NCBI GenBank assembly: GCA_963575745.1
Contig: CAUYUJ010000225.1
Location: forward strand, 1,426,001-1,490,000
Direction: 5' to 3'
Source of the DNA: Prorocentrum cordatum
Lineage: Eukaryota
DNA length: 64,000 nt
Position 1 is the stretch's first letter, and each line of letters opens with the position of its first letter. The notes under the pieces were generated by a model, which ran no database searches, had not been told where the DNA came from, and saw only the letters and a list, made by a program, of their open reading frames with translations. Positions 5,426 to 58,769 of this stretch are shown here, piece after piece. Made by a program: the position numbers and the translations under genes.

Positions 5426-7502
5426 ATTATTCCCCATATCCTAAGATGGGGTTCTTGCTATTACTCGGACGCCGCCGACTCCAGAGAACCTGCTCATACA
5501 CAGACTTACTCATACTCAGACCTACGCATACTCAGACCTTCTCATAGTCTGAGTTGCTCAACGCACGGACTGAGACCTACTCCTACTCAGACCTAGTCAT
5601 ACTCAGACTCGCAAGGGGAGCTGCCAGGGATGTTCTCACGGGCCCGTTCGCGGCCAATTTGTAGGATATCTCAAGCGGATTGCTCGTTTTCATGCCTAAC
5701 ATCCTTTGCTTTCGGAGCAGATTCGGAAGATGTCTCAGGCGGGGCGCTGGTTTCAGCAGCCCTACGGGGAGCCGCCAGGGGTGTTTTCACGGGCCCGTTC
5801 GCGGCCAGTTTGTGGGGATGTCTCAAGCGGTTTGCTCGTTTTCATGCCCAACATCCTTGGCTTTCAGATCAGATGTCGAGGATGTCTCAGGCGGGGCGCT
5901 GGTTTCAGCACCCCTAAGGGGAGCCGCCAGGGGTGTTTTCACGGGCCCGTTCGCGGCCAATTTGTAGGATGTCTCAGGCGGTGTGCTCGTTTTCATGCCC
6001 AACCCTTGGCTTTCAGATCAGATTCGGAGGATGTCTCAGGCGGGGCGCTGGTTTCAGCACCCCTACGGGGAGCCGCCAGGGGTGTTCTCACGGGCCCGTT
6101 CGCGGCCAATGTGTGGGGATGTCTCAAGCGGTTTGCTCGTTGTCATGCCCAACATCCTTGGCTTTCAGAGCAGATTCGGAAGATGTCTCAGGCGGGGCGC
6201 TGGTTTCAGCACCCCCAAAGGGAGCCGCCAAGGGTGTTTTCACGGGCAGGTTCGCGGCCAGTTCGAGGGGATCTCTCAGGCGGTTTGCTCGTTTTCATGC
6301 CCAACATCCTTGGCTTTCAGATCAGATTCTGAGGTGATCTCAGGCGGTGAGCTGGTTTCAACACAACCGCCAAGGGTGTTTTTACGGGCCCGTTCGCGGC
6401 CAGTTTGTGGGGATGTCTCAGGCGGTTTGCTCGTTTTCATGCCCAACATCCTTGGCTTTCAGATCAGATTCGGAAGATGTCTCAGGCGGGGCGCTGGTTT
6501 CAGCACCCCTACGGGGAGCCGCCAGGGGTGTTCTCACGGGCCCCGTTCGCGGCCAGTCTGTGGGGATGTCTCAAGCGGTTTGCTCGTTGTCATGCCCAAC
6601 ATCCTTGGCTTTCAGAGCAGATTCGGAAGATGTCTCAGGCGGGGCGCTGGTTTCAGCACCCCCACAGGGAGCCGCCAAGGGTGTTATCACGGGCCCGTTC
6701 GCGGCCAGTTTGTGGGGATGTCTCAAGCGGTTTGCTCGTTTTCATGCCCAACATCCTTTGCTTTCAAAGCAGATTGTGAGGATGTCTCAGGCGGGGCGCT
6801 GGTTTCAGCATCCCTAAGGAGAGCCGCCAGGGGTGTTTTCACGGGCCCGTTCGCGGCCAGTTTGTGGGGATGTCTCAAGCGGTTTGCTCGTTTCCATGCC
6901 CAACATCCTTTGCTTTCAAAGCAGATCGTGAGGATGTCTCAGGCGGGGCGCTGGTTTCAGCATCCCTAATGAAAGCCGCCAGGGGGTAGGACACGGGCCC
7001 GTTCGCGGCCATTTTGCGGGGATGTCTAATGCACACTACCACAGGCTGAGGAGGGCACGGCCTGGCAGCTGAGGATGGGGAATGAATGGGAGGGCCATAT
7101 TCAATCATACTCAAAGCTCACTCTGACTCATACTCACTCACTCGCATGAAGATTCGCTCGTCTTCGTCGGCCCTGTCGCTCATGCGGACGCGCTATTATA
7201 CAACCCTCGGAAAAAATAACCTGAGGGATTCTGTTTTCGGTGATTGTATGGTCAGCGCTAATCCAATGCTGACGCTAGATATCTGACGTGGACGCAAGGG
7301 CTTCAAAAATCCGACGACCCCGCCGCAGCATTGAAGAACGCAGTTTCTAACAAGTGCCCGAGAAGATCGACCGTCGTGATTTCCAACTTTGTTTCTGTTC
7401 ATTTTTGAGGAGGCTTGTAATCAAGCCCTCATGAACAGACGCTCACTATGGCATGACATAAAACATGAGATGCACATATGGGGAGATCCACGCAATGAGT
7501 AA
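5426..7502 (+). mobile_element. Non-autonomous Helentron/DINE-1-like element, family A copy 1, carrying a 152-bp array
   Basis: Left end CCCCATATCCTAAGATGGGGTTCTTG (5432); right end GATGCACATATGGGGAGATCCACGCAATGAGTAA (7469-7502); interrupts a host repeat unit split between 5340-5425 and 7503 onward. Confidence 0.7.
5616..7030 (+). repeat. 152-bp tandem array, ~9.5 copies
   Basis: GGGCCCGTTCGCGGCC (or close variant) at 5640, 5791, 5943, 6092, 6244, 6386, 6538, 6691, 6843 and 6995. Confidence 0.95.
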
Positions 7503-14178: not shown

Positions 14179-14833
14179 TCAAGGACGCCTCCGGCAAAAG
14201 GCGCACGTGCAGCCGACTGCATGCCGGTAGTCCACGAGCGCCACCGGCAGTACCTGCGCCTCCGAAAATACCATAACTTCGATATGATCCACGCAGCCAC
14301 CTTGTCTCGATGTATCAGCCCATATCGAATCAAAGACCACGCCTTCGTCGTCGTCTGGAGGTCTGTTGATCTGCGGCATGGGCTCTGACGCGCGAAAAGA
14401 CTCCCCAAGGGCAACGCGGGCAACCATTAAGGTCCTCTTGGCATTCTTTTCCAACTGATTTACGCGATCTTCTGTGTAATCGTCGCTTTTTGAAGAATTC
14501 GCAGCGAAGTAAGAAGCGGTGCCGAAGAGCTTACCAGAAGTCTCGCCCCCCATCTGCGGATTGAACCCACCTCTGCATATCTCCGCTAGGGTCGATGGTA
14601 CAGCCCCATGGAATAAGAAATGCTCGTTCAAGTCGAAGTCGTACCTGCTCGCCGGCACTTTCAGATGAGAGAGAGCCGAAATCGGAGAACACATGCCCTT
14701 TCGCTGCCTCTTGCCCTCGAGGTTCTAGAGCTTTGCCATGTAAGATGCTTGCACTCTTGGGTTTACTACCGATCACACCCCGATGATCTCGAGCTGCGGC
14801 GGCTCATGATACACGGCAGACCGGTACGACTCC
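14179..14833 (-). CDS. Terminal exon: PARP (ADP-ribosyltransferase) catalytic domain
   Basis: LNEHFLFHGA, GFNP, GKLFGTASYFAANSSKSDDY, VARVALG, VDHIEVMVF...QVLP: H-Y-E triad recognisable. Frame extends upstream (ESYRSAVYHEPPQLEIIGV*SVVNPRVQASYMAKL*NLEGK) through TGA 14775-14773 and TAG 14727-14725. Confidence 0.92.
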
Positions 14834-15015
14834 CTGTCGGAGAGACCCAAAGAGATACCGAAACCGCTGCTCTCCCGGGGCCTCTCCCGAGGTGCGTTCT
14901 GGCCAAGATTTCGCGGCGAATCCAGCTGCGGCAGCGAAGGCCTCCCGGGAGGCCCACAGAGAATTAGAGAACAAGAAGAAGGGCAACGGTATCGGTACCT
15001 CTTTCCTGCTCTGAC
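14834..15015 (-). other. 182-nt GT-AG intron in the PARP gene
   Basis: CACAG|GTCAG...CGACAG|GGAG; splicing gives in-frame STVASHR-ESYRSAVYHEPP. Confidence 0.75.
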
Positions 15016-15190
15016 CTGTGGCTTGCAACCGTGCTGACGACAATGTGCGACATGAACTGGCCAAACGGGTCCTCTTCTGGCACTGCGCCAATGCGGTACT
15101 CAGAATAATGGGAAGGCCGAGGCATCTGGGCAGCGTGCGCGAGTCGATCCGCCGCCCCGCCCTCGCACGCTGGGGCGTCTTCGACTATCA
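15016..15190 (-). CDS. Exon upstream of the PARP domain (...RPSHYSEYRIGAVPEEDPFGQFMSHIVVSTVASHR); 5' boundary uncertain
   Basis: Open frame of ORF 14964-15224 splices in frame to the PARP exon. Confidence 0.6.
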
Positions 15191-15896
15191 ACTGCATGGG
15201 AGAGGTTCCTCTGTAATGTTTCAAGAGCCTCTGCCCCCGACTTCAGGAGACAACTCGAGGGAGGTCTTCGTAAGGTCGATTCAGGGCCATTGCGCCCTAT
15301 TAGAAGGCCACTACACCAAGTTAGCCCAAACTAGGCCCCAAATTGAGCCAGATTAAACCGGATTAGGCGGGGTTGGACCGGATGATGAGCGGGAGTCTGC
15401 CGCTGTCCGACCACAGATGTAACAGCGCCGATGCTGAGATGAACCTCGCAGGAGCTGCAGCCTAACATACTCGCGCATTCGCCAAAAAGTGCCCACGCTT
15501 TGCTCTCCAGCGAGCTTCGTAGCCCCAAGATGGCCCTGAACACCAACCAGTCCCGAGATGGCTACAAGATGCCCCAAGACCGGCCCAAGGCAATCTATAG
15601 ACAACCCACAAGGCCCAAGATGCCCCGAAAAAACTCCACAACAGGGCCCCTGGGACGCCAAGCCCATCGAATAACTCGTGCTGCAGGATGTTAGGTGAAA
15701 GGCGGCTTCAGGAATACCGCAGAGGCTCCCGAGGAAGCCTCAAAGGCACCCGAAAGCCTCCAAGATCGCGCTAAGAGGCGACCAAGACAGCCCGAGCACG
15801 CTCCAAGAAACCCTCAGACCACTGCGCTACAATACTGCCCCAGAACCATGGCACCGAAGTCGATCTAAGACCGTCTAACAAGGGGGCTTGTAGAGC

Positions 15897-17091
15897 CTTG
15901 ACTCTAGTGAAACTCCTCAAGAGAACTCGGTAAACGGTAGAACGATCCTGCTCGGACTTCAATGCTGCACTAGCACAGTGACGGAAATTGCCGCAGACAG
16001 CGTGATATTTGTCCATAAGCTCTTTGAACATGAGCATGTCGTCATCATGGCGCCCATCCGTTCTCTGTCCAGATCCACTCGAACCGTCAGACGCCAGCCA
16101 TATCTTCAATGTCCAGTCGTGTGAAGCAGAGAGAACCTTCTTACCGTCTGGAGAGAAACAACAACTATAAACATCAGCGTCGTGCCCGCTCAGGGTATGC
16201 AGCAGCGCACCGTCAGACGCCAGCCATATCTTCAATGTCCAGTCGACTGAAGCAGAGAGAACCTTCTTCCCGTCTGGAGAGAAACAACAACTATAAACAT
16301 CACCGTCGTGCCCGCTCAGGGTATGCAGCAGCGCACCGTCAGACGCCAGCCATATCTTCAATGTCCAGTCAACTGAAGCAGAGAGAACCTTCTTCCCGTC
16401 TGGAGAGAAACAACAACTATAACAACAGCGTCGTGCCCGCTCAGGGTATGCAGCAACGCACCGTCAGACGCCAGCCATATCTTCAATGTCCAGTCCTCTG
16501 AAGCAGAGAGAACCTTCTTCCCGTCTGGAGAGAAACAACAACTATAAATATCAAAGTGGTGCCCGCTCAAGGTATGCAGCAACGCACCGTCAGACGCCAG
16601 CCATATCTTCAATGTCCAGTCAACTGAAGCAGAGAGAACCTTCTTCCCGTCTGGAGAGAAACAACAACTATGAACAACAGCGACGTGCCCGCTCAGGGTA
16701 TGCAGCAGCGCACCGTCAGACGCCAGCCATATCTTCAATGTCCAGTCAACTGAAGAACCTTCTTCCCGTCTGGAGAGAAACAACAACTATAAACATCACC
16801 GTCGTGCCCACTCAGGGTATGCAGCAACGCGCCGTCAGACACCAGCCAGATCTTCAATGTCCAGTCAACTGAAACAGAGAGAACCTCCTTACCGTCTGGA
16901 GAGAAACAACAACTATTAACAACAGCGTCGTGCCCGCTCAGGGTATGCAGCAACGCACCGTCAGACGCCAGCCATATCTTCAATGTCGAGTCATGTGAAG
17001 CAGAGAGAACCTTCTTCCCGTCTGGAGAGAAACAACAACTCACAACAATATTGCGGTGCCCGCTCAAAGTTCGTTCGGCACGGAATACCAT
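15897..17091 (-). CDS. WD40 repeat exon, 8 x 42-aa HET-E-like repeats plus linker, frameshifted
   Basis: Consensus ALLHTLSGHxxxVxSCCFSPDGKKVLSASxDxTLKIWLASDG; unit anchors at 16084, 16210, 16336, 16461, 16587, 16713, 16832 and 16958 (spacings 126,126,125,126,126,119,126); possible AAG|GC donor at 15896. Confidence 0.93.
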
Positions 17092-18734
17092 TGGCCGCGA
17101 ATTGTGCTTTCAAGGCGGGCGAATGCACCTTGAGTCCCGCAAGGGCCACAGCTTGTCCGCCACTTTGCCTGCATCGAATCGCGCGAATCAGCAAAATGCG
17201 GTACGGTGGGGGTGGTCATCAATGCGTTCGAAGGCAAGTTCGTTTCCCTGTCACATCAGCCCCCATGAACACCCCCCAGGAAACGAAACCCCGTGGGAGA
17301 CCTAATGCATTTTCTCGTGCCTGTCGTGGTGCGTTTGAGGAGCAACCCGGGCCATTGTCTGACCACTTTGGGCTGTCATGGGGCCATCCTGGACCGTTTG
17401 GGGGCAAGCTTGGGCCGTCTCTTGGTCCTTGGGGCCATCCTAGGCCACCTTCGTGGCCATCCTGAGCAATTTTGCCCGTCTGGCGGTGGCAAATTCGTGC
17501 GGCAACGCCACCACATTTTTGATCGACTCGCGCGCGGCCGCCGTCTGCGACCTTGGGCGGGCTTGTCCACTGGCGAAACCAATGTTTGCATGCACAGACT
17601 TGCTTGCCGCGACAAGCGAAACAGCAGGCCCACACGGCGATGCAAGCACCACTGGTGGGCAGACGACGCAGCGGACACGGCAGAGCAACGCGACAGCGAG
17701 CGAGGCACGACGGTAAAACAAGAAAAAGGCGAGGGCCAAAACGGGAAGCGAGCTGGGCAGCGGCGCGGCCGACGCCCGCGGAATGCTTGGGCCTGGTGAG
17801 CGAGCTTGCCTTTGACTACCGACCAGACCACCCCAACCGAACCCGAAAACCCGAATTTCGGGTTGGGGGGGGTACGGGTTCCGCATATGGAATGGATGCC
17901 CCCCCCGCTGGGAATGGAGGGCAAATTGAAATTTTCGGGGCGGGTTGGGGTGGTTTGGTGGGCGGCGAAACTTGGCACGAACGCAGGGTTCGCCCTGGGT
18001 GTACGCGTGTTGGAAGCAGCACTCGCTGCGTTTGGGAGGCGCCCCCCCCCCGCCCCCCGTCACACACGCTTCAGCTCCGCCAGCGACGCGGCAACGCAGT
18101 TGCAATCAATGCTAAAACGAGCTGCGTCGAAACGACGCGACAACCTGCGATGGAGCCCCCCGTCCTTTTTAACCCGGTGGCGCAGAGGATCCTCAAGCAG
18201 CAGATGCAACTGCCACTTGCGATCGGATATTGTCGAAGGCATAGTGTACTAAACGTGCACACCGTCAATGCAGCGTGAATGGTGTGAAGGAGGAGCTGTA
18301 AATCCAAACGAAACGTCCAGCGGCCACGGGGTTCCCCGACCACGCATACACTTGTTCGGCGTCGTGACCTCGCGCGCGGCGACGGGGCGTAGAAAATCGG
18401 GCGCAGGCAGTGAAGCGCGCGCGTTTACGCCTGGCCTAGCACCCAGAAGCCGCTTAGAGTCTCGCAGCCGGCAGCAGCCATGCCCATCCAGGCTTGGATT
18501 GCGGGGAAGGGCGATGAGTAGACGAAACTACGGTGAGGGTGGAAGATGACAGAAGCCAACTGGCGCACACACACACACACACACACTCACTCATTCACTC
18601 ACAAACTCACGCTCCTTGGGCGGTAGCGATCTCGCGCGCAGTGACGAGGCGGACAAAGTGAACAGACAGCGCGCGCGGCGGCAAGGCCCTCAGCATCGCT
18701 TAGGATGCGGTCCTACCGATACCAGCCATGCAGA

Positions 18735-18795
18735 AAGCACACACACACACATCCGACCGACATCAGCACACAAACACACACGCAGGCACGCACGC

Positions 18796-18873
<78 letters not shown>

Positions 18874-18936
18874 GCACACACACACACACACACGCACACG
18901 CACACGCACACGCACACGCACACGCACACGCACACA

Positions 18937-18990
<54 letters not shown>
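18735..18990. repeat. (CA)n/(CAGA)n microsatellite
   Basis: Direct reading. Confidence 0.95.
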
Positions 18991-18993
<3 letters not shown>

Positions 18994-19779
18994 CCTCGTG
19001 ATGGAGGGGGGGCGGCGCTTGGGTGGGTGAGGGGAGGACGGGTTGGGCCAAGTGAAACTGCCATCGCTCGAACAGTGGCCGCACGTGAAACCAGAATGGT
19101 AAACCTCAACCGCGCGAAATGCGGGGAACGACTCTGCCACAGTCCCTTCCTCCTCGCCTTAACCATCTCCTTCCCCCCCCGTTTCCCCCTCCCGCCCCCT
19201 CCTCCTCATTTCTCCTCCTCCTCCTCCTCTTCCTCCGCCTCCTCCTCCTCTTCCTCCTATCTCGTCCTCCGCGGGGGGGGGCTGACTACCGTCTCCTGGT
19301 TTCCAGTCCTACCCCTAGGGCACACTGTCAGTGGAACCTGCATCCACGGTCTGGGTGAGTGGCAACCGGCCTTCTGTTCGGTATGGCAGGCAGCGGGCAC
19401 TTGGACTGGGGGTGGGCGTTGTGAAACCTGCTCGGCTGGGGGATGCCCCCGCCGCTGGGTGTAGCACGGCCCTCGGTCTCAGCCTTGCCCAGCTGATGGC
19501 GGCGTTAGTCAGACACCTGTGGTGGCATGTAAGGCTCCCAAGGACTCGCGTTTCCGTGAAAGGTGGTGGCGAGTGCCACAACGGCTGGGGCAGGAGTTCC
19601 CAATGCGCAATGCCCACTGTTTCGGCGGGGTCGAGCCTGGGGGGCCGCCCACGAACCAACATGCCGTCACGGTGGGGCCGCGAGTCGCCAAGCGACGAGG
19701 TCCGCTGAACCTACCCAGCACCATGTTTGTCTGTGGTGCAGAGGCATGGGGCGCCCATTAATGCTTCCTCATGTATTCT

Positions 19780-20430
19780 CCTCCTATCCCCTCCTCCTCC
19801 TATCTCCTCCTCCTCCTCCTCCTCCTTCTCCCCCTCCTCCTCCTCCTCCGCCTCCTCCTCCTCCCCCTCCTCCTCCTCCCCCTCCTCCTCCTCCTCCTCC
19901 TCATCTTCCTCCTCCTCCTCATCATCATCATCCTCCTCATCCTCCTCATCCTCCTCATCCTCCCTCCCTCGTCGTCAATCCCAGCCATCCCCCCTCCCCT
20001 GCGAGTCCACCTCGCGTGCTCCCCCTCTTCGGAGAGGGAAGGAGAGCGGGCGGGCAAGCGGGAGAGGAGAGGCAGCCAATCGGCCGCGCGGCCGCGCGGA
20101 AATGGTGTCGGGCGGGTACGGGGTCACGCGCCGACCACGAGCTGCAAGGCGCCCGCCCCCCCACCCCCCCCCCAAACCCCCAGAAGGTGCAGCCGACGAC
20201 GCTGGCCGGCCAGGAGCCGTGGCCATCCCGGCTGCAACGGAGCATGTAAGCACGCCACCTCTTCCCTCCTGCTCCCACCTCTTCCCTCCTGCTCCTCCTG
20301 CTCCTCCTACTCCTCCTGCTCCTGCTCCTGCTCCTGCGCCTGCTGCTGCTGCTGCTGCTGCTGCTCCTCCTCCTCCTCCTCCTCCTCCTGCTCCTGTTCC
20401 TGCTCCTCCTCCTCCTCCTCCTCCTCCCCC
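19780..20430. repeat. (CCT)n/(CTG)n tracts flanking a short unique GC-rich island
   Basis: Direct reading. Confidence 0.85.
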
Positions 20431-20583
20431 TCCACTCCCGTTAGCTCCAGCTAGCTCCGCAGCCGACGCCACCTCGATGAAGTGAAACCGAAAAAAGGAG
20501 AGGAGAGAGAGAGAGAGAGTGAGCAAGCGAGAGAGAGAGAGCGATTCATGAATATGTGTATATATACATATGTAGATGTGCAC

Positions 20584-20615
<32 letters not shown>

Positions 20616-22119
20616 TACACCGTGCCTTATGGGAGAAGAAAGGGGAAAGCTGAGGAGACGAATCGGGCAGCAAAGCCTCCCGCTCACAATGCCAACAATA
20701 TTGGACAAACGCATAGTGTGCGCACCCCTGACGGCCCCCGATCGTTTATATACACCTGCACGACCACCCCTCGGGTGATAAGGTTGGTGGGGGGAAAAGA
20801 ACCAACTGACGACAACTGCGACGGCGGTGATGATGACGATGCTGGTGATGCGCCCTCGAGTTGGCGACGACGCGTGGTGACGACGCTGCGTCGCGATATG
20901 GTCCCACTATCTATCCCACTCGATCGACCTCACCATCAAGACACCACCAGGGCACCATGAGGCCAAATAAATGCCACCACTACTGTGCTGTGATGGTGTG
21001 TGCTAAGTGTAATGGCTGGCTGCTGATGGCAAGGTGATGGCCACAGTGGTGATGAGCGTGGCGGCGACAGCAACGACAGTAGTGCTGAGTACGATCGGAA
21101 CACCATCGGAACACTATCGGGCCAAACAGAAGCCACCACCACTGCGCTGCGATTGCAATGTGACGATGTGGCGTCTCGATGTGATCTCACCATCGATCCC
21201 ACACGATCGACCTCACCATCGAGACACCACCAGGCCACCATGAGGCCTAAGAAATGCCATCATTACTGTGCTGTGATGGTTGGTGCTGAGCGTGATCCCC
21301 GCCCAGATGTTCTGGCCCCCGGTCCCGCGGCCTCCGAGGGATAGGAAACAAAGAAAGGACGGAAGAGGGTGTGAGGGACGGAAAGAATTGAGAAAGGCGA
21401 GGAAAGAGGTGGAGGGAGAACAAACAGAGTGGAAGCGGACATAAGCAAGAGAACGTGTGGAGACCGACGGAACACCGACGGGACAATTGGCGTATCTCAC
21501 TATCGATCACACAGTCGATCACACTTCGAACTGGGTTCCACATCATTTTTTCGAGGACGTCCCGCACAAACGTTCATGTTCCTGTTGTTTCGATTATGAT
21601 TTCGAACTTGGTTCGGATCTGTTTCGCGAGGAAGGTCCTCGAGGCTTGTCGTCTTCGAACCGCCACCCCGTTTTGCCTTCTCCGAACTCAATTGGAGGTA
21701 CGGTTGAGGGAAGGAATTGAGCAACACTCCCCCCCTCCCCCGCAACTCAAAGTTTGCACGTTCCTTGAAGACCACTCGGAGGCCCAACACCGGAAGATCC
21801 GAAACCAACACTGCATTTTGGGGGGAGGGAGGGGGAGTTCAAACCAAAGGTTCTGCATGAGTGCTGCTTGATTGTTTCCGACACCCGCGATCGCCCGCCT
21901 CCCGCCGGCACAGCTCCACCCCCACCACATTGTACCAGGCTCCGCGCGCCCAGCGGGGCATGTCCGATCCACGCTGCGCCAGCATGCCAAAGAATGGGCG
22001 ATCTTTTGTCACGGCACAGTACATACATGGAGAGAGAGAGAGAGAGAATATGAGAAGAAGAGAGGAAGAGAGAAAGAGAGAGATAACATGTAAAGAGGAG
22101 GCATTAGGTGATGGATCTC

Positions 22120-22965
22120 ATTATCACGATCGATCTCCCTATCGATTTGACAATCGAACTCACGATCGATCTCACAAGCGATCTTACCATCGATCTCACA
22201 ACAGATCCCACAATCGATCTCCCAATCGATCTCACCATCGATGTGACAATCGAACTCACTATCGATCTCATTTTCGGACTCACGATTGATCTAACAACAA
22301 TTCCCACTATCGATCTCACAACAATTCGCACGATCTGATTCACCATCAATCACCATCGATCTCACAATCGATCTCACCATCTATGTGACAATCGAACTCA
22401 CTATCGATCCTCAGCATCGGTCTCACTGTCGATCCCACCATAGATCTCACGAGCGATCTCACCATCGATCTCACATCAGATCATACGATCGATCTCACAA
22501 CTAATCCAACTATCGATCTCACAACAGGTCTCATTATCGATCTCAAAATCGATCTCACTATGGATATCACAATCGATCTCACATCAGATCCCACTATCGA
22601 TCTCACAATCGATCTCACAAGCAATCGCACGGTCGATATCACAACAGTTCTCACTATCGATCTTCGAATCAACCTCAGCATCGATCTGGAAATCGAACTC
22701 ACTATGGATCTTACATTCGGAATCACCATCGATCTCACCATCGATCTCACCATCGATCTCACGGTCGGTCTCACAATCGATCTGACAATCGATCTCACGA
22801 TCGATCTCACTGTGGATCCCGCTATAGATCTCACGAATGAACTCACCATCGATCTCACAACAGATCTTACGATCGATCTCACAACAGATCTCACGATCGA
22901 TCTCAAATCAGATCTTACGATCGATCTCACAGCAGATTTCGCAATCGATCTCACTATCGATCTCA
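22120..22965. repeat. 12-bp minisatellite ATCGATCTCACN, ~70 units
   Basis: Direct reading; produces the artefactual TIDL/RSIV ORFs. Confidence 0.93.
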
Positions 22966-23389
22966 CCGCCGCGCCACCGACGGGACACCGCCGCGCCATC
23001 GACGGGACACCGATGGGACACCGTCGCGCCACCGATGGGACACCCCCGGCCATCGCGCGCTGGGGGGCAGCGGACAACTGGCTCCACAGCCCCTTGTTCC
23101 TCTCGCGCGCTCACGCAGCTTCGCCTCGCCCGCACGCGCGACACGAACACGGAATCGAAACCGATTTCCTGGTGGGGGGCTCTCCGTTCCACTGCGATCT
23201 CACCCCCTCACCTCCGATGGAGAGAGAGGGGAGGGAGGAATACACACAGACTTTTATATATGTACATGTGTATACGTATCTGAATTATTCACTGCGTGGG
23301 GATCCCCATATGTGCATCTCCTTGCTGGCGCTCCCTTGGTGGTGGGACTCGGTGAGGACGAATCTGGATTTAAGTGTGACTGAGCTGCC

Positions 23390-24055: not shown

Positions 24056-24125
<70 letters not shown>
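23390..24125. repeat. (CT)n microsatellite, ~730 bp
   Basis: Direct reading. Confidence 0.97.
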
Positions 24126-24127
<2 letters not shown>

Positions 24128-25265
24128 GCTCGTGAGATCAGCCAGGGTGGCTCCCCCTTGGGGCTCCCAAATGATGCCCCTGGCAGCGTTTTGTGACCAT
24201 GAGGCTCTCAAGAGATACATGTTGGGGAGGCCAAACGGCAATTCTAGCTGAGGCGTCCCACCAAAATCGGCGCGAACGGGCTCGTGAGATCAGCCAGGGT
24301 GGCTCCCCCTTGGGGCTCCCAAATGATGCCCCTGGCAGCGTTTTGTGACCATGAGGCTCTCAAGAGATACATGTTGGGGGCGCCAAACGGCAATTCTAGC
24401 TGAGACGTCCCACCAAAATCGGCGCGAACGGGCTCGTGAGATCAGCCAGGGTGGCTCCCCCTTGGGGCTCCCAAATGATGCCCCTGGCAGCGTTTTGTGA
24501 CCATGAGGCTCTCAAGAGATACATGTTGGGGGCGCCAAACGGCAATTCTAGCTGAGACGTCCCACCAAAATCGGCGCGAACGGGCTCGTGAGATCAGCCA
24601 GGGTGGCTCCCCCTTGGGGCTCCCAAATGATGCCCCTGGCAGCGTTTTGTGACCATGAGGCTCTCAAGAGATACATGTTGGGGAGGCCAAACGGCAATTC
24701 TAGCTGAGACGTCCCACCAAAATCGGCGCGAACGGGCTCGTGAGATCAGCCAGGGTGGCTCCCCCTTGGGGCTCCCAAATGATGCCCCTGGCAGCGTTTT
24801 GTGACCATGAGGCTCTCAAGAGATACATGTTGGGGGCGCCAAACGGCAATTCTAGCTGAGACGTCCCACCAAAATCGGCGCGAACGGGCTCGTGAGATCA
24901 GCCAGGGTGGCTCCCCCTTGGGGCTCCCAAATGATGCCCCTGGCAGCGTTTTGTGACCATGAGGCTCTCAAGAGATACATGTTGGGGGCGCCAAACGGCA
25001 ATTCTAGCTGAGACGTCCCACCAAAATCGGCGCGAACGGGCTCGTGAGATCAGCCAGGGTGGCTCCCCCTTGGGGCTCCCAAATGATGCCCCTGGCAGCG
25101 TTTTGTGACCATGAGGCTCTCAAGAGATACATGTTGGGGGCGCCAAACGGCAATTCTAGCTGAGACGTCCCACCAAAATCGGCGCGAACGGGCTCGTGAG
25201 ATCAGCCAGGGTGGCTCCCCCTTGGGGCTCCCAAAGGATGCCCCTGGCAGCGTTTTGTGATCATG
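24126..25265 (-). repeat. 152-bp tandem array, 7.5 nearly identical copies
   Basis: GGGCTCGTGAGA at 24126, 24278, 24430, 24582, 24734, 24886, 25038 and 25190; reverse complement aligns to the 5616-7030 unit. Confidence 0.97.
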
Positions 25266-25519
25266 AGAGAGTGCGAGTGTGAGCTTAACTTATCTTATCT
25301 TATCTTGAAATCTATTCTTATCATCTCTTGTGCTATTTTATCTTATCTTGTAGTATCTTATCTTGTCTTGTCTTATCTGGTGATTATCATTGGGAGGAGG
25401 GAGGCGCGAGCGGGATGAAGAAGGAGGAGGAGGAGTGGGAGGCGTCAGAGTAATAACAAGAACCCCAATCCTTAGGATATGGGGAAAAAGAGGAAACAGA
25501 GAGAGAGAGAGAGAGATAG

Positions 25520-27907: not shown

Positions 27908-28895
<988 letters not shown>

Positions 28896-30452: not shown

Positions 30453-32261
30453 CCTCATATCCTAAGATGGGGTTAGTGTTATTACTTGGACGCCTCCAAC
30501 TGCTCAATCCTCGTCTGCTCCTCCTCCTCCTCCTCATACCTAGGCTCGCGCATACCTAGACTTACTCATACACAGACTTACTCATGCTCAGACCCAATCT
30601 TATTAACTTGCTCATAATCAGACCTACTCATACTCAGACTGACCCATGCTGAGACTCACTCGTACCCAGACTTGCTCATACTCGGACCTTCGCATTGTCT
30701 GACTTATTGAACACACAGCAGATTGTGAGGATGTCTCAAGCGGGCGCTGGTTTCAGCACCCCTAAGGGGAACCGCCGAATGGTATTGCACGGTCCTGTTC
30801 GCGGCCGTTTTGTGGGGATGTCCCGAGCGGTTTGCCTGTTTTCTGTCCCAGCGTCCTTCGTTTGGAGAGCAGATTGTGAGGATGTCTCAGGCGGGGCGCG
30901 GGTTTCAGCACCCCTAAGGGGAGCCGCCGATGGGGTATTGCACGGTCCCGTTCGCGACAGTCGTGTGGGGATGTCTCAAGCGCTTTGCATGTTTTCTGTC
31001 CCAACATCCTTCGCTTGTAGGGGAAATTGCCAGGATGTCTCAGGCGGTGCGCTGGTTTCAGCGCCGCCGAGGGGTATTGCACGGTCCCGTTCGCGGCCGT
31101 CTTGCGGAGATGTCTCCAGCGGCTTGCCTGTTTTCTGTCCCAACATCCGTCGCTTGGAGAACAGATTGTGAGGATGTCTCAGGCGGGGCGCTGGTTTCAG
31201 CACCCCTAAAGGGAACCGCCGAGGGGTATTGCACGGTCCCGTTCGTGGCCGTATTGTGGGGATGTCTCAAGCGGTTTGCCAGTTTTCTGTCCCAACATCC
31301 TTCGCAGGTTGAGCAGATGGTGGGGATGTCTCAGGCGGGGCGCTGGCTTCAGCTACCTAAGGGGGGCCGCCAAAGGGTGTTGCACGGATCCGTTCGCTGC
31401 CATTTTGTGATGATATCTCAAGCAGTTTGCCTGATGTCTGTCCGAACATCCTTCGCTTGGAGAGCAGATTGTGAAGATGTCTCAGGCGGGGCGCTGGTTT
31501 CAGCACCCCTAAGGGGAGCCGCCAAATGGTATTGCACGGTCCCGTTCGCGGACGTTTTGCGGGGATGTCTCAAGCGGTTCGCCTGTTTTCTGTCTCGACA
31601 TCCTTCGCCTGGAGAGCAGATTGCGAGGATGTCTCAGGCGGGGCGCTGGTTTCAGCACCCCTTGGGGGGCCGCTGAGGGGTATGACACGGTCCCGTTCGC
31701 GGCCGTTTTGTGGGGATGTCTCAAGCGGTTTGCCTGTTGTCTGTCTCAACATCCTTCGCTTGAAGAACAGATTGTGAGGATGTCTCAGGCGGGGCGCTGG
31801 TTTCAGCTACCTAAAGACAGCCGCCAAGGGCTGCTTTCACGGCTCCGTTCGTCGCCATTTTGTGGTGATGTCTCTAACGGCTTGCCTGTTTTCTGTGTTT
31901 GCGTTGTGTCCCGAGTGGCTCTCCCCGTTGCGTACGGCGGTCAAGGAAGAATGACCAGGTGTTGCTGGCGCAGAGCTTGTGTCACCGTGGGATGTTGCTT
32001 TCTCTCTCCGTGGTGCTTTCCAATCTTGTCGTCGTCAGCGGGAGAGGGAACTTGAGAAGGTTCATTCTCCCGCGTGCGTTTGGGCTGGGGAGGAACTTGA
32101 AAAGGTTCACTCTCTAGCTGCGGGAGAGGGAACTTGAAAAGGTTCACTTTCCCGCTTGTGGCTCATATGACTCATATGGCTGGGCACTCATTCAACTTTC
32201 CCAAATGCAATATTACCTTTTAAGAAGGATGCACATATGGGGAGCTCCACGCAGTGAGTCA
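30453..32261 (+). mobile_element. Family A copy 3, carrying a 152-bp array
   Basis: Left end CCTCATATCCTAAGATGGGGTT...TTACTTGGACGCC (30453); CAGACTTACTCATA repeats as in copy 1; right end GATGCACATATGGGGAGCTCCACGCAGTGAGTCA (32228-32261). Confidence 0.7.
30717..31900 (+). repeat. 152-bp tandem array, ~8 diverged copies
   Basis: CACGGTCCCGTTCGC-like anchors ~152 bp apart; shares GATGTCTCAGGCGGGGCGCTGGTTTCAGCACCCC with 5616-7030. Confidence 0.93.
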
Positions 32262-41459: not shown

Positions 41460-42010
41460 GGGCATCCGTGGGCGGCGCCTATTTCGGCGGCAAAGATGCG
41501 CAAGGGCGCCTTGCCTGGCGCGAGTCCTCAAAGGCTGCTCCCCCAGATGCGCGCTGGTGCGCACATTGCGGCGGCAAGGTCGCGCAAGGGCGCCCTGCCT
41601 AGTCAGCATCCTTCGGTGGCGCCCCCAGGTGTGCGACGCTGTGCACAGCGCGGCGCCAAGGACACGCAACGGCGCCCTGCCTAGCCCGCATCCTTCGGTG
41701 GCGCCCATCGGTATTCGACGCTGTGCATGATGCGGCGGTAAAGACGCGCAACGGCATCGTGCCTGGCCCGCATCCTCGGGTGGCGTCCCCTCGGTGTGCG
41801 ACGCTGTGCACAGCGCGGCGGCAAGAACGCGCAACGGCGCCCTGCCTGGTCAGCATCCTTCGGTGGCGCCCCCAAGTGTGCGACGCTGTGCACAGCGCGG
41901 CGCCAAGGACGCGCAACGGCGCCCTGCCTGGCCCGCATCCTTCGGTGGCGCCCATCGGTGTTCGACGCTGCGCATGGCGGCAAAGACGCGCAATGGCGCC
42001 CTGTCTGGCC
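41460..42010. repeat. ~82-bp tandem repeat, ~6 copies
   Basis: CATCCTTCGGTGG-like anchors at 41607, 41688, 41771, 41854 and 41936. Confidence 0.85.
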
Positions 42011-42208
42011 CGCGTGCGTTCCTACTCCACGTGCTCCCCCCTCGCAGCGCGCACCGCACAAGTGACCCACCGGCGGGTGGGTCACCCGAAAACTGGTGGA
42101 GAAAAACGAATACTTGTTTCGGATGCATCATGCGCATCAACCCGAGTTGGTGCCTTCCAACTCCATAGGTTCCCCCTTTGCAGCGCGCACCGCACAGGCG
42201 ACCCACTC

Positions 42209-43350: not shown

Positions 43351-45840
43351 GACCCACTGGCGGGTGGGTCACCCCAAAACAGGTGGAGAAAAACAAATAC
43401 TTGTTTCGGCTGCATTCTGGGCACCAACCTGGGTTGGTGCATTCCTACTCCATGTGCTTCCCCTGTGCAGCGCGCACCGCACAGGCGACCCACCGGCGGG
43501 TGGGTCACCCGAAAACTGGTGGAGAAAAACGACAGCGCGAACCGCACTGGTGACCCACCAGCGGGTGGGCCATCCGAAAACTGGTTGCGAAAAAACCATC
43601 GTTTCACTTGCGCTCTGGGCATCAACCTGAGGTGGTGCATTCCTGCCCCATACGATTTCCCAGTGTTGCGCGCGCCGCACGGGCGAATCACCAACGGGTG
43701 GGTTGCCCGAAAACTGGTTGCGAGGAACCCATCGTATCACTTGCATTCTGGGCACCAACCTGAGTTGGTACACTCCTGCTCCATACGCTTCCTGTGTTGC
43801 GCGCACTGCACAGGTGACCCACCAGCAGGTGGGTCACGCGAAAATTGATTCAGATAAACAAGCCATTTCATTTGCATTCTGGGCCTCATATTGAGTTGGT
43901 GCGTTCCCACTCCAGTCGCTTCCCATGTGTAGCGCGCGCCGCACAGGTGACCCACCAACGGGTGGGTGACCAGAAAAATGGTGGATCAAAAACAATCGTT
44001 TCACTTGCATGTTGGGACTCATCCTGAGTTCGAGCACTCCTACTTCATACGCTTCCCCTGAGTAGCGCGCACCGCACCGGTGACCCACCAGCGGTTGGGT
44101 CGACCGAAAACTGGGTTTGATAAAACAACTGTTTCACTTGAGTTCTGGGCCTCATGTTGAATTTGTGCATTCCTACTTCATACGTTTCCCTCGTGTGGCG
44201 CGCGCCGCACGGGTGACCCACCAATGGGTGGGTCGGCCGAAAACTAGTGGAGAAAACCAATCGTTTCACTTGCATGCTGGGACTCATTCTGAGTTTGCGC
44301 ACTCCTACTTCATACGTTTCACCTGTGTAGCGCGCACCGCACAGGTGACCCTCCAGCGGGTGGGTCGCCCGAGAGCTGGGTTTGATGCGCCAACTGTTTC
44401 ACTTGAACTCTGGGCCTCATGTTGAATAGGTGCCATCCTACTCCAGTCGCTTCCCCCGTGTAGCGCGCGGCGCAGAGGCGACCCACCGGCGGGTGGGTCC
44501 CCCCAAAACTGGTTGAGAAAAGCCAGCCCTTCTTTTGCATTCTCGGCATCAACCTAGATTAGTGCACTCCTACTCAATACGGTTCCCCTGTGTAGCGCGC
44601 GCCGCACAGATGACCCACCAGCGGTGGGTCACCCTAAAAATGGTTGAGAAACAACCCATGCCTACCTTGCAAGGCTGGTGCATTTCTATTCCAGACGCCC
44701 CCCCTGCGCAGCGCGCGCCGCACAGTTGACCCACCAGCGGGTGGGTCAGTCGAATACGATTCTTGAACTCAACAATGAATTGTTTCACTTGTTTAATTTT
44801 GGACATCAATCTGAGTTGGTACACTCCTGCTCAAAACGCTTCCCCTGTGCGGCGCGCACCGCACAGGTGACCCACCAACGGATGGATCGCCCGAACACTG
44901 GTTGAGAACAACCCAGCTGCTCTACTTGCGCTTCGGGCATCAATATTGGCTGGTGCATCCCTGCTCCAAACGCTTCTCCTGTGTGGCGCGCACCGCACAG
45001 GTGACCCACCAGCGGGTGGGTCACCAGAAAACTGGTTCAGAAATACCAATTGTTCCACTTGAATTCTGGGCATCAACATATAAGTTCGTGAATTCCTTCT
45101 CCATACACTTTCCCTGTGTTGCGAGCACCGTCCAGGTCACCCACCAGCGGGTGGCTCACCCGAAAACTGGTTCAGAAATACCCATCGTTTCACTTACATT
45201 CAGGGCATCAACATAAGTTCGTGAATTCCTACTCGATACACTTCCCCTGTGTTGCGCGCGCCGCACAGGGGATGTAACAGTGCGTGGAACATCCAAAAGC
45301 TGGTTTCGTTCCACTTGCGTTTTTGGCATCAACCTGAGGTGGCGCATTCCTGCTTCATACGCTTCCCCGGTGTTGCGCGAACCGAAAAAGTGACACCAAC
45401 CAGCGGGTGGGTCATCTAAAAGCTGGTTAAGAAAAACAAATCCTTCCACTTGCGTTTTCAGCATCAACTTGAGGTGGTGCATTCCTGCTCCGTACTCTTC
45501 CTTTGTGTTGCGCGCACGACACAAATGACCCGCCAGCGGGTGGGTCACCCGAAAGCCGGTTGAGAAAAACCCAGTGTTACACTTACATTCAAGGCATCAG
45601 CCTGAATTGGTGCACTCCTACGCCATACGCTTCCACCGTTCAGCGCGCAGTGCACAGGTGACCCACCAGCGGGTGTATCACCCGAACACCGATTGAGAAA
45701 AAACAGCTGTTACACTTGCATCTGCGCCTCAACATGAGTTGATGCCTTTCCTACTCCATACGCTTCCCCACGTGTAGCGCGCGCCGCACAGGTGACCCAC
45801 CAGCGGATGGGTCACTCAAAAGCTGGCCGGTAAATTCTGG
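43350..45840. repeat. ~133-bp tandem array, ~19 diverged copies, each with palindrome GTGACCCACC-AGCG-GGTGGGTCAC
   Basis: Anchors at 43814, 43947, 44080, 44213, 44345, 44478 ... 45658, 45792; outlying copy at 42062. Confidence 0.9.
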
Positions 45841-51875: not shown

Positions 51876-52560
51876 GGACTGGTGAAGACCCAAGAGTCAT
51901 CAAAGATGTTGGCATAAACACTCCCTCCAAACTCCGTTTTCATAGGCCCTTACAACGGTTCATTTCCACAGGGAATTGCTTCGTTGGAAGACAACCGTTT
52001 AAAGACCCTGAAGCATGCCAAAACATTGTTGCCGGGATTCCAACGCCACGGATCAACCTGCCTGTTGCGCTTTGACGGTCTTGAACCGCGCCAGAACACG
52101 TACCTGTTGCACCTTCATTATCCAACATTCGTCCAAAACACCATTTCTGGTACGCTGCCTCTGGGAACCCATGAAACTCTTGCAAGTATTACAAACGAAT
52201 GTGCGCGGCGCTCAGGCGAGAGCCACATTTTGAAAAGGAACCGCCCTCAATATATGAAGCCTTTTTGCAAGTTTGTCATACGAATGTGCGCGGCGCCTGG
52301 GCGAGAGCCACATTTTGAAAACGGCCCGCCCTCCATCTGTGAAGCTCTTACAAATGTTTAAAACGAGTGTGCGCGGCGCTAAGGCTAGAGCCACATTTTG
52401 AAAACGGCCTGCCCTCCATGTGCGAAACTGTTTTCAACTTTTAAGCTTCAGTGTCATACATAAGTCGTGAGGAAGTTCCAGGCGTAACGCCCGGACCGCC
52501 CTAAAAACTGACCTTTGGGTGCGACAGGGAGAAGTTATCTATAAGGAACAAAGAATGGAG
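51876..52560 (-). mobile_element. Inverted, diverged copy of the 48470-49180 element
   Basis: Reverse-complement alignment at both ends and over the internal GAGCCACATTTTGAAAA repeats. Confidence 0.85.
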
Positions 52561-52620
52561 GAAGAGGGGGAAGAGGAGGAGGAAAAGGAGGAGGAGGAGG
52601 AGGAGGAGGAGGAGGAGTTC

Positions 52621-52772
52621 CTCCAGACCGCGCAAGAGCGACATGCACTCGTCCGTGGGTGCCACGGCGCTGTAGAGCAGGAGGCCACCTGCCTCCAGCC
52701 TCAGTACGGTCATGCGGATGGGCACGTGGACGTACAGCAGGCCGATCTTCTGCTCGAGCCCCCAAACTTCGC
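52621..52772 (-). CDS. DUF4336-family gene, exon 2 (EVWGLEQKIGLLYVHVPIRMTVLRLEAGGLLLYSAVAPTDECMSLLRGLE)
   Basis: Hallmark LYVxVPIRMTVxxLxxGGLLxYxxVAPTxEC; 152 nt; non-canonical GAG|GA donor at 52620. Confidence 0.93.
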
Positions 52773-52809
52773 CTCGGCCGATGCGCAGGTTACGGAAGGC
52801 AACGGCCGG

Positions 52810-58748: not shown

Positions 58749-58769
58749 CTTGAGCCAAAATGGCTACGG
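58749..58769 (-). other. Dinoflagellate spliced leader (DinoSL) relic
   Basis: Exact CCGTAGCCATTTTGGCTCAAG, 21 of the 22 nt of DCCGTAGCCATTTTGGCTCAAG; not followed by a GT-started SL RNA intron. Confidence 0.97.

Follow-up and report, generated by a model that had tools for sequence, protein, structure and literature searches.

Our analysis concerns a stretch of 64,000 nucleotides from the dinoflagellate Prorocentrum cordatum (NCBI GenBank assembly GCA_963575745.1, contig CAUYUJ010000225.1, positions 1,426,001 to 1,490,000 of the forward strand; hereafter the window), the minus strand of which carries a tandem array of eight near-identical WD40 units. The question raised by this array is why its units differ so strongly at a few codons, and what kind of protein they belonged to. 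A preliminary description of this DNA likened the variable positions to the ligand-facing residues of the fungal protein HET-E and concluded that concerted evolution acts together with diversifying selection. We think it rather probable that the array is part of a broken dinoflagellate gene in which a hypervariable N-terminal WD40 propeller was joined to a tankyrase-like PARP domain, and that the intact protein targeted a fast-evolving partner for ADP-ribosylation.

Anatomy and variation of the WD40 array

The array and its units are located as follows.

16083..17064, minus strand: eight 126-bp WD40 units, defined by Tandem Repeats Finder (TRF), PF00400 and tetrad residues, with hypervariable codons 4, 5, 6, 8 and 24
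17064, 16938, 16812, 16693, 16567, 16441, 16316 and 16190, minus strand: starts of units 1 to 8

When run on the window, TRF reports the array at 16083-17040 (period 126, 7.7 copies, 92% matches), and the three open pieces of the array match PF00400 with E-values of 1.6e-29, 2e-21 and 6e-21. Each unit has the layout SGH-xxxVx-SCCFSPDGKKVLSAS-xDW-TLKIWLASDGALLHTL, in which we number codons from the S of SGH as 1. Of the tetrad, every unit retains H3, D25 and W31, whereas S21 is kept in seven units and was taken out of unit 3 by a 7-bp deletion. Pairwise nucleotide identity of the units ranges from 0.865 to 0.983 (mean 0.928), and no copy of the unit beyond these eight was found elsewhere in the 64-kb window. 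The array thus has the DH[S/T]W tetrad and the internal identity of high-identity WD40 proteins, for which the cut-offs are >0.7 (Hu 2017) or 0.85 over 100 residues (Dyrka 2014).

The sixteen motifs that the preliminary description had listed after GH and at S-x-D-x were all found exactly as quoted. Variation affects 23 of the 126 columns and is far from evenly spread, as 13 of the 23 lie within six hot codons (4, 5, 6, 8, 24 and 26; 18 columns; hypergeometric p=3.7e-8), which bears out the earlier claim that it is concentrated at HET-E-type positions. At the protein level the units differ by 0.60 at these six sites and by 0.03 at the other 36 positions, for an identity of ~0.87. The companion claim that the rest of the unit is nearly invariant holds for the totals outside the six codons, where we count 6 changes at 26.3 silent sites versus 4 replacements at 81.7 sites, but less well for unit 2, which has three of these replacements (K18E, A22V and A33V; the fourth is V7I in unit 5). 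Positions 1 and 17 show no amino-acid change in the array, and positions 18 and 33 are changed in unit 2 only.

Evidence for diversifying selection and for possible exchange between units

Codon models were fitted with our own GY94 implementation on a maximum-likelihood (ML) tree and on a star tree. For the array as a whole, M0 gives a ratio of nonsynonymous to synonymous rates (dN/dS, omega) of 0.78. M2a is preferred to M1a (2dL=15.0, p=5.5e-4 on the ML tree; 26.4 on the star tree) and places codons 4, 5, 6, 8 and 24 in the selected class. With sites fixed in advance, omega is 5.8 in the hot codons versus 0.16 elsewhere, the star tree agrees, and omega=1 at the hot codons is rejected (p=1.3e-5). 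Hence the site-wise comparison that the preliminary description had called for, made on the eight aligned units, gives a joint value well above one for the codons that it had singled out, with site-by-site support for 4, 5, 6, 8 and 24 and not for 26.

Counts of changes agree with the models. In a minimum-change count the six codons have 19.7 replacements in 14.3 sites and the whole unit has 8.3 silent changes in 30 sites, a tree-free excess of 4.9-fold (p=2.6e-5), and the corresponding ratio outside the six codons is 0.21. A conservative count that allows one event per allele still gives 14/14.3 versus 8/30, a 3.7-fold excess (p=0.0025). Extra alleles in codons 4-8 fall at codon positions 1-2 in 15 cases versus one at position 3 (p=0.014), and in all six hot codons the numbers are 17 versus 3 (p=0.06); the near-constancy of third positions is therefore evidence against a local mutation hotspot or an escape from conversion. 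In a four-gamete test 12 column pairs are incompatible, which indicates either exchange between units or recurrent change, and units are more similar within one array than across arrays. Diversifying selection at codons 4, 5, 6, 8 and 24 is thus supported, resting on few events.

A gene that ends in a PARP domain

The remaining parts of the gene were placed as follows.

17065..17091, minus strand: ATG at 17091, the likely start codon, with the N-terminal strand d (MVFRAERTL)
15996..16082, minus strand: linker past the last blade, found by tblastn and aligned to the linker of the homologue P0001 as far as KYH
15147..15995, minus strand: inferred intron 1, ~0.8 kb with approximate borders, a gap between homologous blocks with stops in three frames
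15016..15146, minus strand: exon with the start of the PARP domain (HAAQMPR...VASHR), found by tblastn to homologues
14834..15015, minus strand: inferred intron 2, 182 bp, GT...AG, the excision of which joins SH-R-ESY as in homologues
14179..14833, minus strand: last exon, with the PARP catalytic domain (PF00644) and the final stop at 14181

Translation from the ATG at 17091 gives MVFRAERTLSGH, and the homologue P0132 from Polarella glacialis opens with MEFRSLKGH, likewise right before the first GH. The exon that begins the PARP domain matches the homologues P0001, P0002 and P0004 in tblastn (E-values 1e-8, 2e-10 and 6e-6, respectively). Among the 29 open reading frames of the window that were scanned, the PF00644 match lies at 14182-14724 on the minus strand, the same as the array (E 3.5e-12), and the last exon has the motifs FHG, GxxxYFA and DHIEVMV (the H-Y-E triad) together with a C-terminal HxxxCxCxxC. 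It is 71% identical to P0001 over 225 residues, and P0001 aligns collinearly with the array, the linker and both PARP exons; all of the blades lie within one exon. Upstream of the array, the three minus-strand frames of 17092-22094 (5 kb) have no match to NACHT, NB-ARC or any other Pfam domain, a scan that short distant exons could escape, and the best candidate for a spliced-leader relic 5' of the ATG is not significant (12 of 634 tiles score as high). We infer that a single gene, interrupted by at least two introns, has the array at its N-terminal end and a tankyrase-like PARP domain at its C-terminal end. Of the HET-E framing of the preliminary description, most of the shared variable positions stand, but it leaves out the PARP fusion, the lack of a NACHT match and the broken state of the copy.

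The copy is interrupted in both of its domains. The preliminary description had a single frameshift, in unit 6, but the array has two.

16755..16756, minus strand: 7-bp deletion in unit 3, a frameshift, its placement ambiguous among 3 equal alignments
16420..16421, minus strand: 1-bp deletion in codon 8 of unit 6, a frameshift within a short base run that could be a read error

As a result of the 7-bp deletion the VDW of unit 3 is in another frame. The PARP exon contains in-frame stops at 14775 (TGA), where P0001, P0002 and P0004 have Arg, and at 14727 (TAG), both upstream of the catalytic core. With two frameshifts in the array and two stops in the PARP exon, the window copy is most likely a pseudogene, and any selection must therefore predate its breakage.

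WD40-PARP homologues and the wider PARP family

Two candidate sets (10 of 457 and 8 of 3413, with duplicates merged and the distant P0010 excluded) yielded 13 close PARP relatives, and the other 12 are 40-65% identical to the PARP domain of P0001. Five of the 13 have WD40 repeats, and the WD40-PARP homologues come from P. cordatum and P. glacialis. The family profile finds its best match in tankyrase-2 (E 2e-21), to which the H, Y and E align; in the PARP alignment the H is present in 13 of 14 rows (Y in P0130) and the Y and E in all 14. Judged from its sequence, the domain in the window has the PF00644 fold with an H-Y-E triad. Searches of the ESM Atlas returned generic PARP clusters only, below 0.9. 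The related proteins P0003, P0005-P0009, P0131 and P0133 are in the same PARP clade and have an invariant DHxE and a C-terminal His/Cys motif that is likely zinc-binding. There is apparently, as far as these sequences indicate, a modular PARP subfamily with varied N-termini that has gone undescribed. Two PARP surveys (PMC2964712; bioRxiv 2026.07.25.740670) have zero mentions of WD40.

The array of P0132 repeats much of the pattern in the window. Its seven homogenised blades have their own fixed signature and differ by 0.63 at the six sites versus 0.10 elsewhere, with positions 5, 6, 8 and 24 the most variable. The pattern used to detect repeats caught only 2 of the ~4 blades of P0001, and array figures for that protein are therefore weak. 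The scaffold differs by 0.23-0.39 between arrays, and homogenisation must therefore have taken place gene by gene. An AlphaFold model of P0132 (38-row alignment; pLDDT 90, pTM 0.56) has seven four-stranded blades, a 47-residue helix (residues 316-362) and a PARP fold. Among the matches listed by Foldseek for this model there are only propellers, including the 7-bladed WRAP-T and PkwA (TM 0.97 of target) and generic viral WD40 proteins. P0132 and P0004 both run from the start Met through WD40 to PARP and leave no room for an NTPase domain.

Location and generality of the variable positions

Published work on HET-E and related proteins gives the variable positions a structural context. Paoletti et al. 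(PMC1805685) reported positive selection at HET-E codons 7, 9, 25 and 27, which flank the conserved codons 8 and 26, and placed the two pairs in the d-a loop and the b-c turn of the top face. These correspond to codons 6, 8, 24 and 26 of the window as mapped by spacing and textual anchors and not by the HET-E sequence itself, and positions 10, 11, 12, 14, 30, 32 and 39 of Ament-Velasquez et al. (PMC12222747) fit codons 4, 5, 6, 8, 24, 26 and 33 by spacing. The proposed match to the selected sites of HET-E is thus supported for three of the four core codons (6, 8 and 24) and not for codon 26, and codons 4 and 5 are supported besides. Codons 6, 8 and 24 are also equivalent to R1-2, R1 and D-1, the general binding hotspots of the WD40 top face (Wu et al., 2012; PMC3419727). 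In the P0132 model, positions 4-6 are in the d-a loop, position 8 opens strand a and 24-26 are in the b-c turn, the same elements as the HET-E pairs. Hence the hypervariable residues are predicted to lie on the top face.

How specific this pattern is was assessed with the best 150 proteins of a profile-library search with full-length P0002, 149 of which have at least 4 ungapped repeats; none of the 150 has a PARP domain, and since long WD40 proteins swamped the search it is usable as a background set only. In the 32 of these proteins with internal identity >=0.75 (363 repeats) the order of variability is 24, 6, 8, 5 and 26, then 1 and 4, and 7 high-identity proteins of a second set (75 of 129 usable) show the same most-variable positions. 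Positions 1, 17, 18 and 33 vary nearly as much as the hot sites in 61 divergent arrays (0.73-0.84 versus 0.77-0.88) but far less in the 32 high-identity ones (0.16-0.31 versus 0.61-0.78 at 5, 6, 8, 24 and 26). As described by Hu et al. (2017; PMC5587647), highly repetitive WD40 proteins, including protist members of the high-identity class, vary at the hotspot sites. With the same positions ranked at the top in other repetitive arrays, the comparison to HET-E overstates specificity: the variation pattern itself is already known and is not HET-E-specific. P0138, P0237, P0163 and others are long proteins, many with a P-loop, that have 10-14 near-identical WD40 blades varying only at hotspots. 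A WD40-only search recovered P0001 and no other array of this type among the best 120 of 2303.

Comparison with known systems

The closest evolutionary parallels are the HNWD/NWD NLRs of Podospora anserina (HET-E, HET-D and HET-R; PMC1805685, PMC12222747), which resemble the window gene in that their WD40 units are near-identical, that selection acts on the residues either side of the conserved V after GH and on the one preceding the tetrad Asp, that units show traces of exchange, and that some copies are pseudogenised. The differences are nevertheless considerable. No NACHT or HET domain was found in the window gene, D+1 is not selected in its array, and the host is a dinoflagellate. The propeller is here N-terminal and single with 7-8 blades, whereas in HNWD/NWD proteins it is C-terminal and double; they combine an N-terminal effector (HET) with a C-terminal WD40 sensor, and the order in the window is WD40, linker, PARP. 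An identity as an HNWD NLR was rejected because no NACHT was found in the 5 kb upstream or in the homologues P0132 and P0004, and the domain order is reversed. Within the highly repetitive WD40 proteins known from bacteria, fungi and protists (PMC5587647) the array is a plain member, with identity >0.7, full tetrads and hotspot diversity; a PARP fusion or a dinoflagellate case was not encountered in the consulted passages of Hu et al., its supplementary dataset aside.

Among the closest systems are also Tankyrase-1/2 (ankyrin repeats, SAM and PARP), which are the closest solved catalytic match (E 2e-21), share the H-Y-E triad, and likewise have a repeat domain ahead of a C-terminal PARP. In the window gene WD40 replaces ankyrin, the frames scanned have no SAM match, and the family profile has a gap in place of the tankyrase Cys/His insert, the window gene having its C-terminal HxxxCxCxxC. 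For the tankyrase repeats, no hypervariability is known. The candidate ROCO-LRR and NB-ARC-TPR receptors of Ectocarpus (Zambounis 2012, PMC3341825) are similar in that their repeats, also algal, are subject to diversifying selection and their genes arise and are lost, but they have one exon per repeat and a GTPase or NB-ARC domain, whereas the blades in the window lie in one exon, no NTPase was found and the effector is a PARP.

Weighing the alternatives

Several findings count against our proposal. When one unit is dropped the conservative test gives p between 0.001 and 0.055, the highest value being that for unit 1, and p rises to 0.21 when unit 5 is left out as well. The multi-base patches of these two units may each be one conversion event; the signal comes from few events in eight short, recombining units, and tree-based tests can be inflated by recombination. 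The conclusion of concerted evolution plus diversifying selection is supported for the array itself by M2a, the replacement excess and the four-gamete pairs, but is weak in the conservative test without these two units. Codon 26 (D+1) reads W in seven of the eight units and finds no support in the codon models, so the hypervariability claimed for it must be dropped. In P0132, codon 4, invariant by pattern, stays constant across 6 of the 7 blades and positions 17, 20, 32 and 33 vary, the blades of P0002 and P0004 are divergent and not homogenised, and 8 of the 13 relatives have PARP without WD40 and with other N-termini, one of them ubiquitin-like; hypervariability is thus no fixed family trait. 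In the PARP tree the six WD40-bearing rows fall in a polytomy, with one origin in 0% of bootstrap trees, although a single origin is not rejected (p-AU 0.25). Finally, there are ~2 close paralogues per named species and no large expansion, as judged by word-based searches of limited reach.

The loss of significance without units 1 and 5 is what would be expected if a single blade had been recently amplified and its top-face loops were under relaxed constraint, with purifying selection elsewhere and no diversifying selection. The ratio of nonsynonymous to synonymous polymorphism (pN/pS) of 1.08 within the four core codons alone also suits such a history, as does the continuous re-amplification of blades reported in bioRxiv 2022.03.13.484165. 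We give it only a small chance, given the rejection of omega=1 at the hot codons, the third positions of the same patch that hardly vary, and the homogenisation of equally tolerant positions off the top face. The constant C or T at the third position of codons 4-7, which vary at positions 1-2 only, might instead suggest that a diversity-generating retroelement (DGR) or a similar adenine-directed mutator wrote the variation. DGR variation is adenine-only. Position 3 does vary in two of the codons (GAG in codon 24, GTG in codon 8), adenines immediately beside the patch are invariant, the window has no template copy beyond the eight units, and W and E occur among the variable residues of P0001, so this origin is largely refuted and its chance next to negligible. 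As a DGR target the array was likewise rejected, with neither a template repeat in the window nor adenine-only variation found.

A further possibility concerns function, namely that the propeller is an NLR-like sensor that either gates the PARP of the same protein in cis or acts together with a separate NTPase, ligand binding then triggering self- or bystander ADP-ribosylation, NAD+ drain or cell death in the manner of the effector domain of HET-E. The selected positions shared with HET-E speak for it, as do the enrichment of highly conserved repeats among fungal NLRs (PMC4986451) and the long helix of the P0132 model (residues 316-362), which could oligomerise. We hold it to be unlikely in view of the region upstream of the array without a NACHT or NB-ARC match, the lack of space for an NTPase domain in P0132 and P0004, the short linkers of the window copy and P0001, and the pTM of 0.56 of the P0132 model, in which there is no fixed domain packing. 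The gene might also be intact in life, its breaks being assembly errors or mended by RNA editing or stop read-through; the short base run at the unit 6 deletion, the poor assembly of tandem arrays (PMC12222747) and the retention of H-Y-E are in keeping with this. There are, nonetheless, four independent lesions, among them the 7-bp deletion and, in non-repetitive sequence, two nonsense codons, which make it quite improbable.

Other features of the window

Further features of the window are as follows.

58749-58769, minus strand: exact match to a 21-mer, which we take to be the dinoflagellate spliced leader (0 in 100 shuffles)
~58748-54000, minus strand: ATG directly 3' of that match, followed by a frameshifted series of LINE-like open reading frames
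~52500-52800, minus strand, and further downstream: exons of an intron-rich gene that encode DUF4336 (PF14234, E 2e-16 and 1e-29)
5615-7027, 24125-25267 and 30717-31896: three 152-bp tandem arrays
1048-1835, 41485-42013, 43534-45826, 27909-28895 and 22124-22966: other repeats, comprising 102, 82 and 133 bp satellites, a (TCATCA)n tract and a 12-bp array

The LINE-like reading frames have endonuclease- and reverse transcriptase-like motifs by eye and no Pfam match, and together with the spliced leader they look like a trans-spliced retroelement copy. The spliced-leader match and the origin of the nearest named homologues (P. cordatum and P. glacialis) mark the window as dinoflagellate DNA. The 152-bp arrays at 5615-7027 and 30717-31896 share a consensus, and the one at 24125-25267 has a different unit and is 99% homogeneous.

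Implications for recognition in dinoflagellates

The proposed fusion of a hypervariable propeller to a PARP domain would have worked and evolved in the following way. Unequal crossing-over or gene conversion would have homogenised the blade scaffold, and selection would have kept the binding residues different. The top face of the propeller would bind the target directly and the PARP domain would ADP-ribosylate the target so bound, with substrates recruited as by the ankyrin repeats of tankyrase (bioRxiv 2026.07.25.740670) and not by way of an NTPase switch. Since no such switch was found, a guided enzyme is the simplest reading. The targets would probably be parasite, viral or other non-self proteins, and gene copies would be born and lost, the copy in the window being one of the dead. 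Diversifying selection on the binding face, the exchange of blades and gene death together suggest an arms race, which makes non-self targets likely and would give the intact protein a role in defence.

More tentatively, and at somewhat less than an even chance, dinoflagellates may run an NTPase-free immune effector in which a re-amplifiable, variable WD40 homing head is mounted on a PARP that ADP-ribosylates viral or parasite proteins. In evolutionary terms the design is known; the host and the architecture are new, and the copy that shows it is probably dead. A literature search found nothing on dinoflagellate WD40-PARP proteins or on selected dinoflagellate WD40 arrays (most subscription papers lay outside it), and nothing on how viruses or parasites are recognised in dinoflagellates. 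Such recognition is largely an open matter in these organisms, which include bloom formers and coral symbionts. If our proposal is true, this would be the first candidate for a variable receptor family in dinoflagellates and a convergent counterpart of fungal HET-E, and the design of concerted evolution plus hotspots would extend past NTPase receptors. A small protein that combines a variable face for binding with an enzyme that can be assayed would make recognition by dinoflagellates testable.
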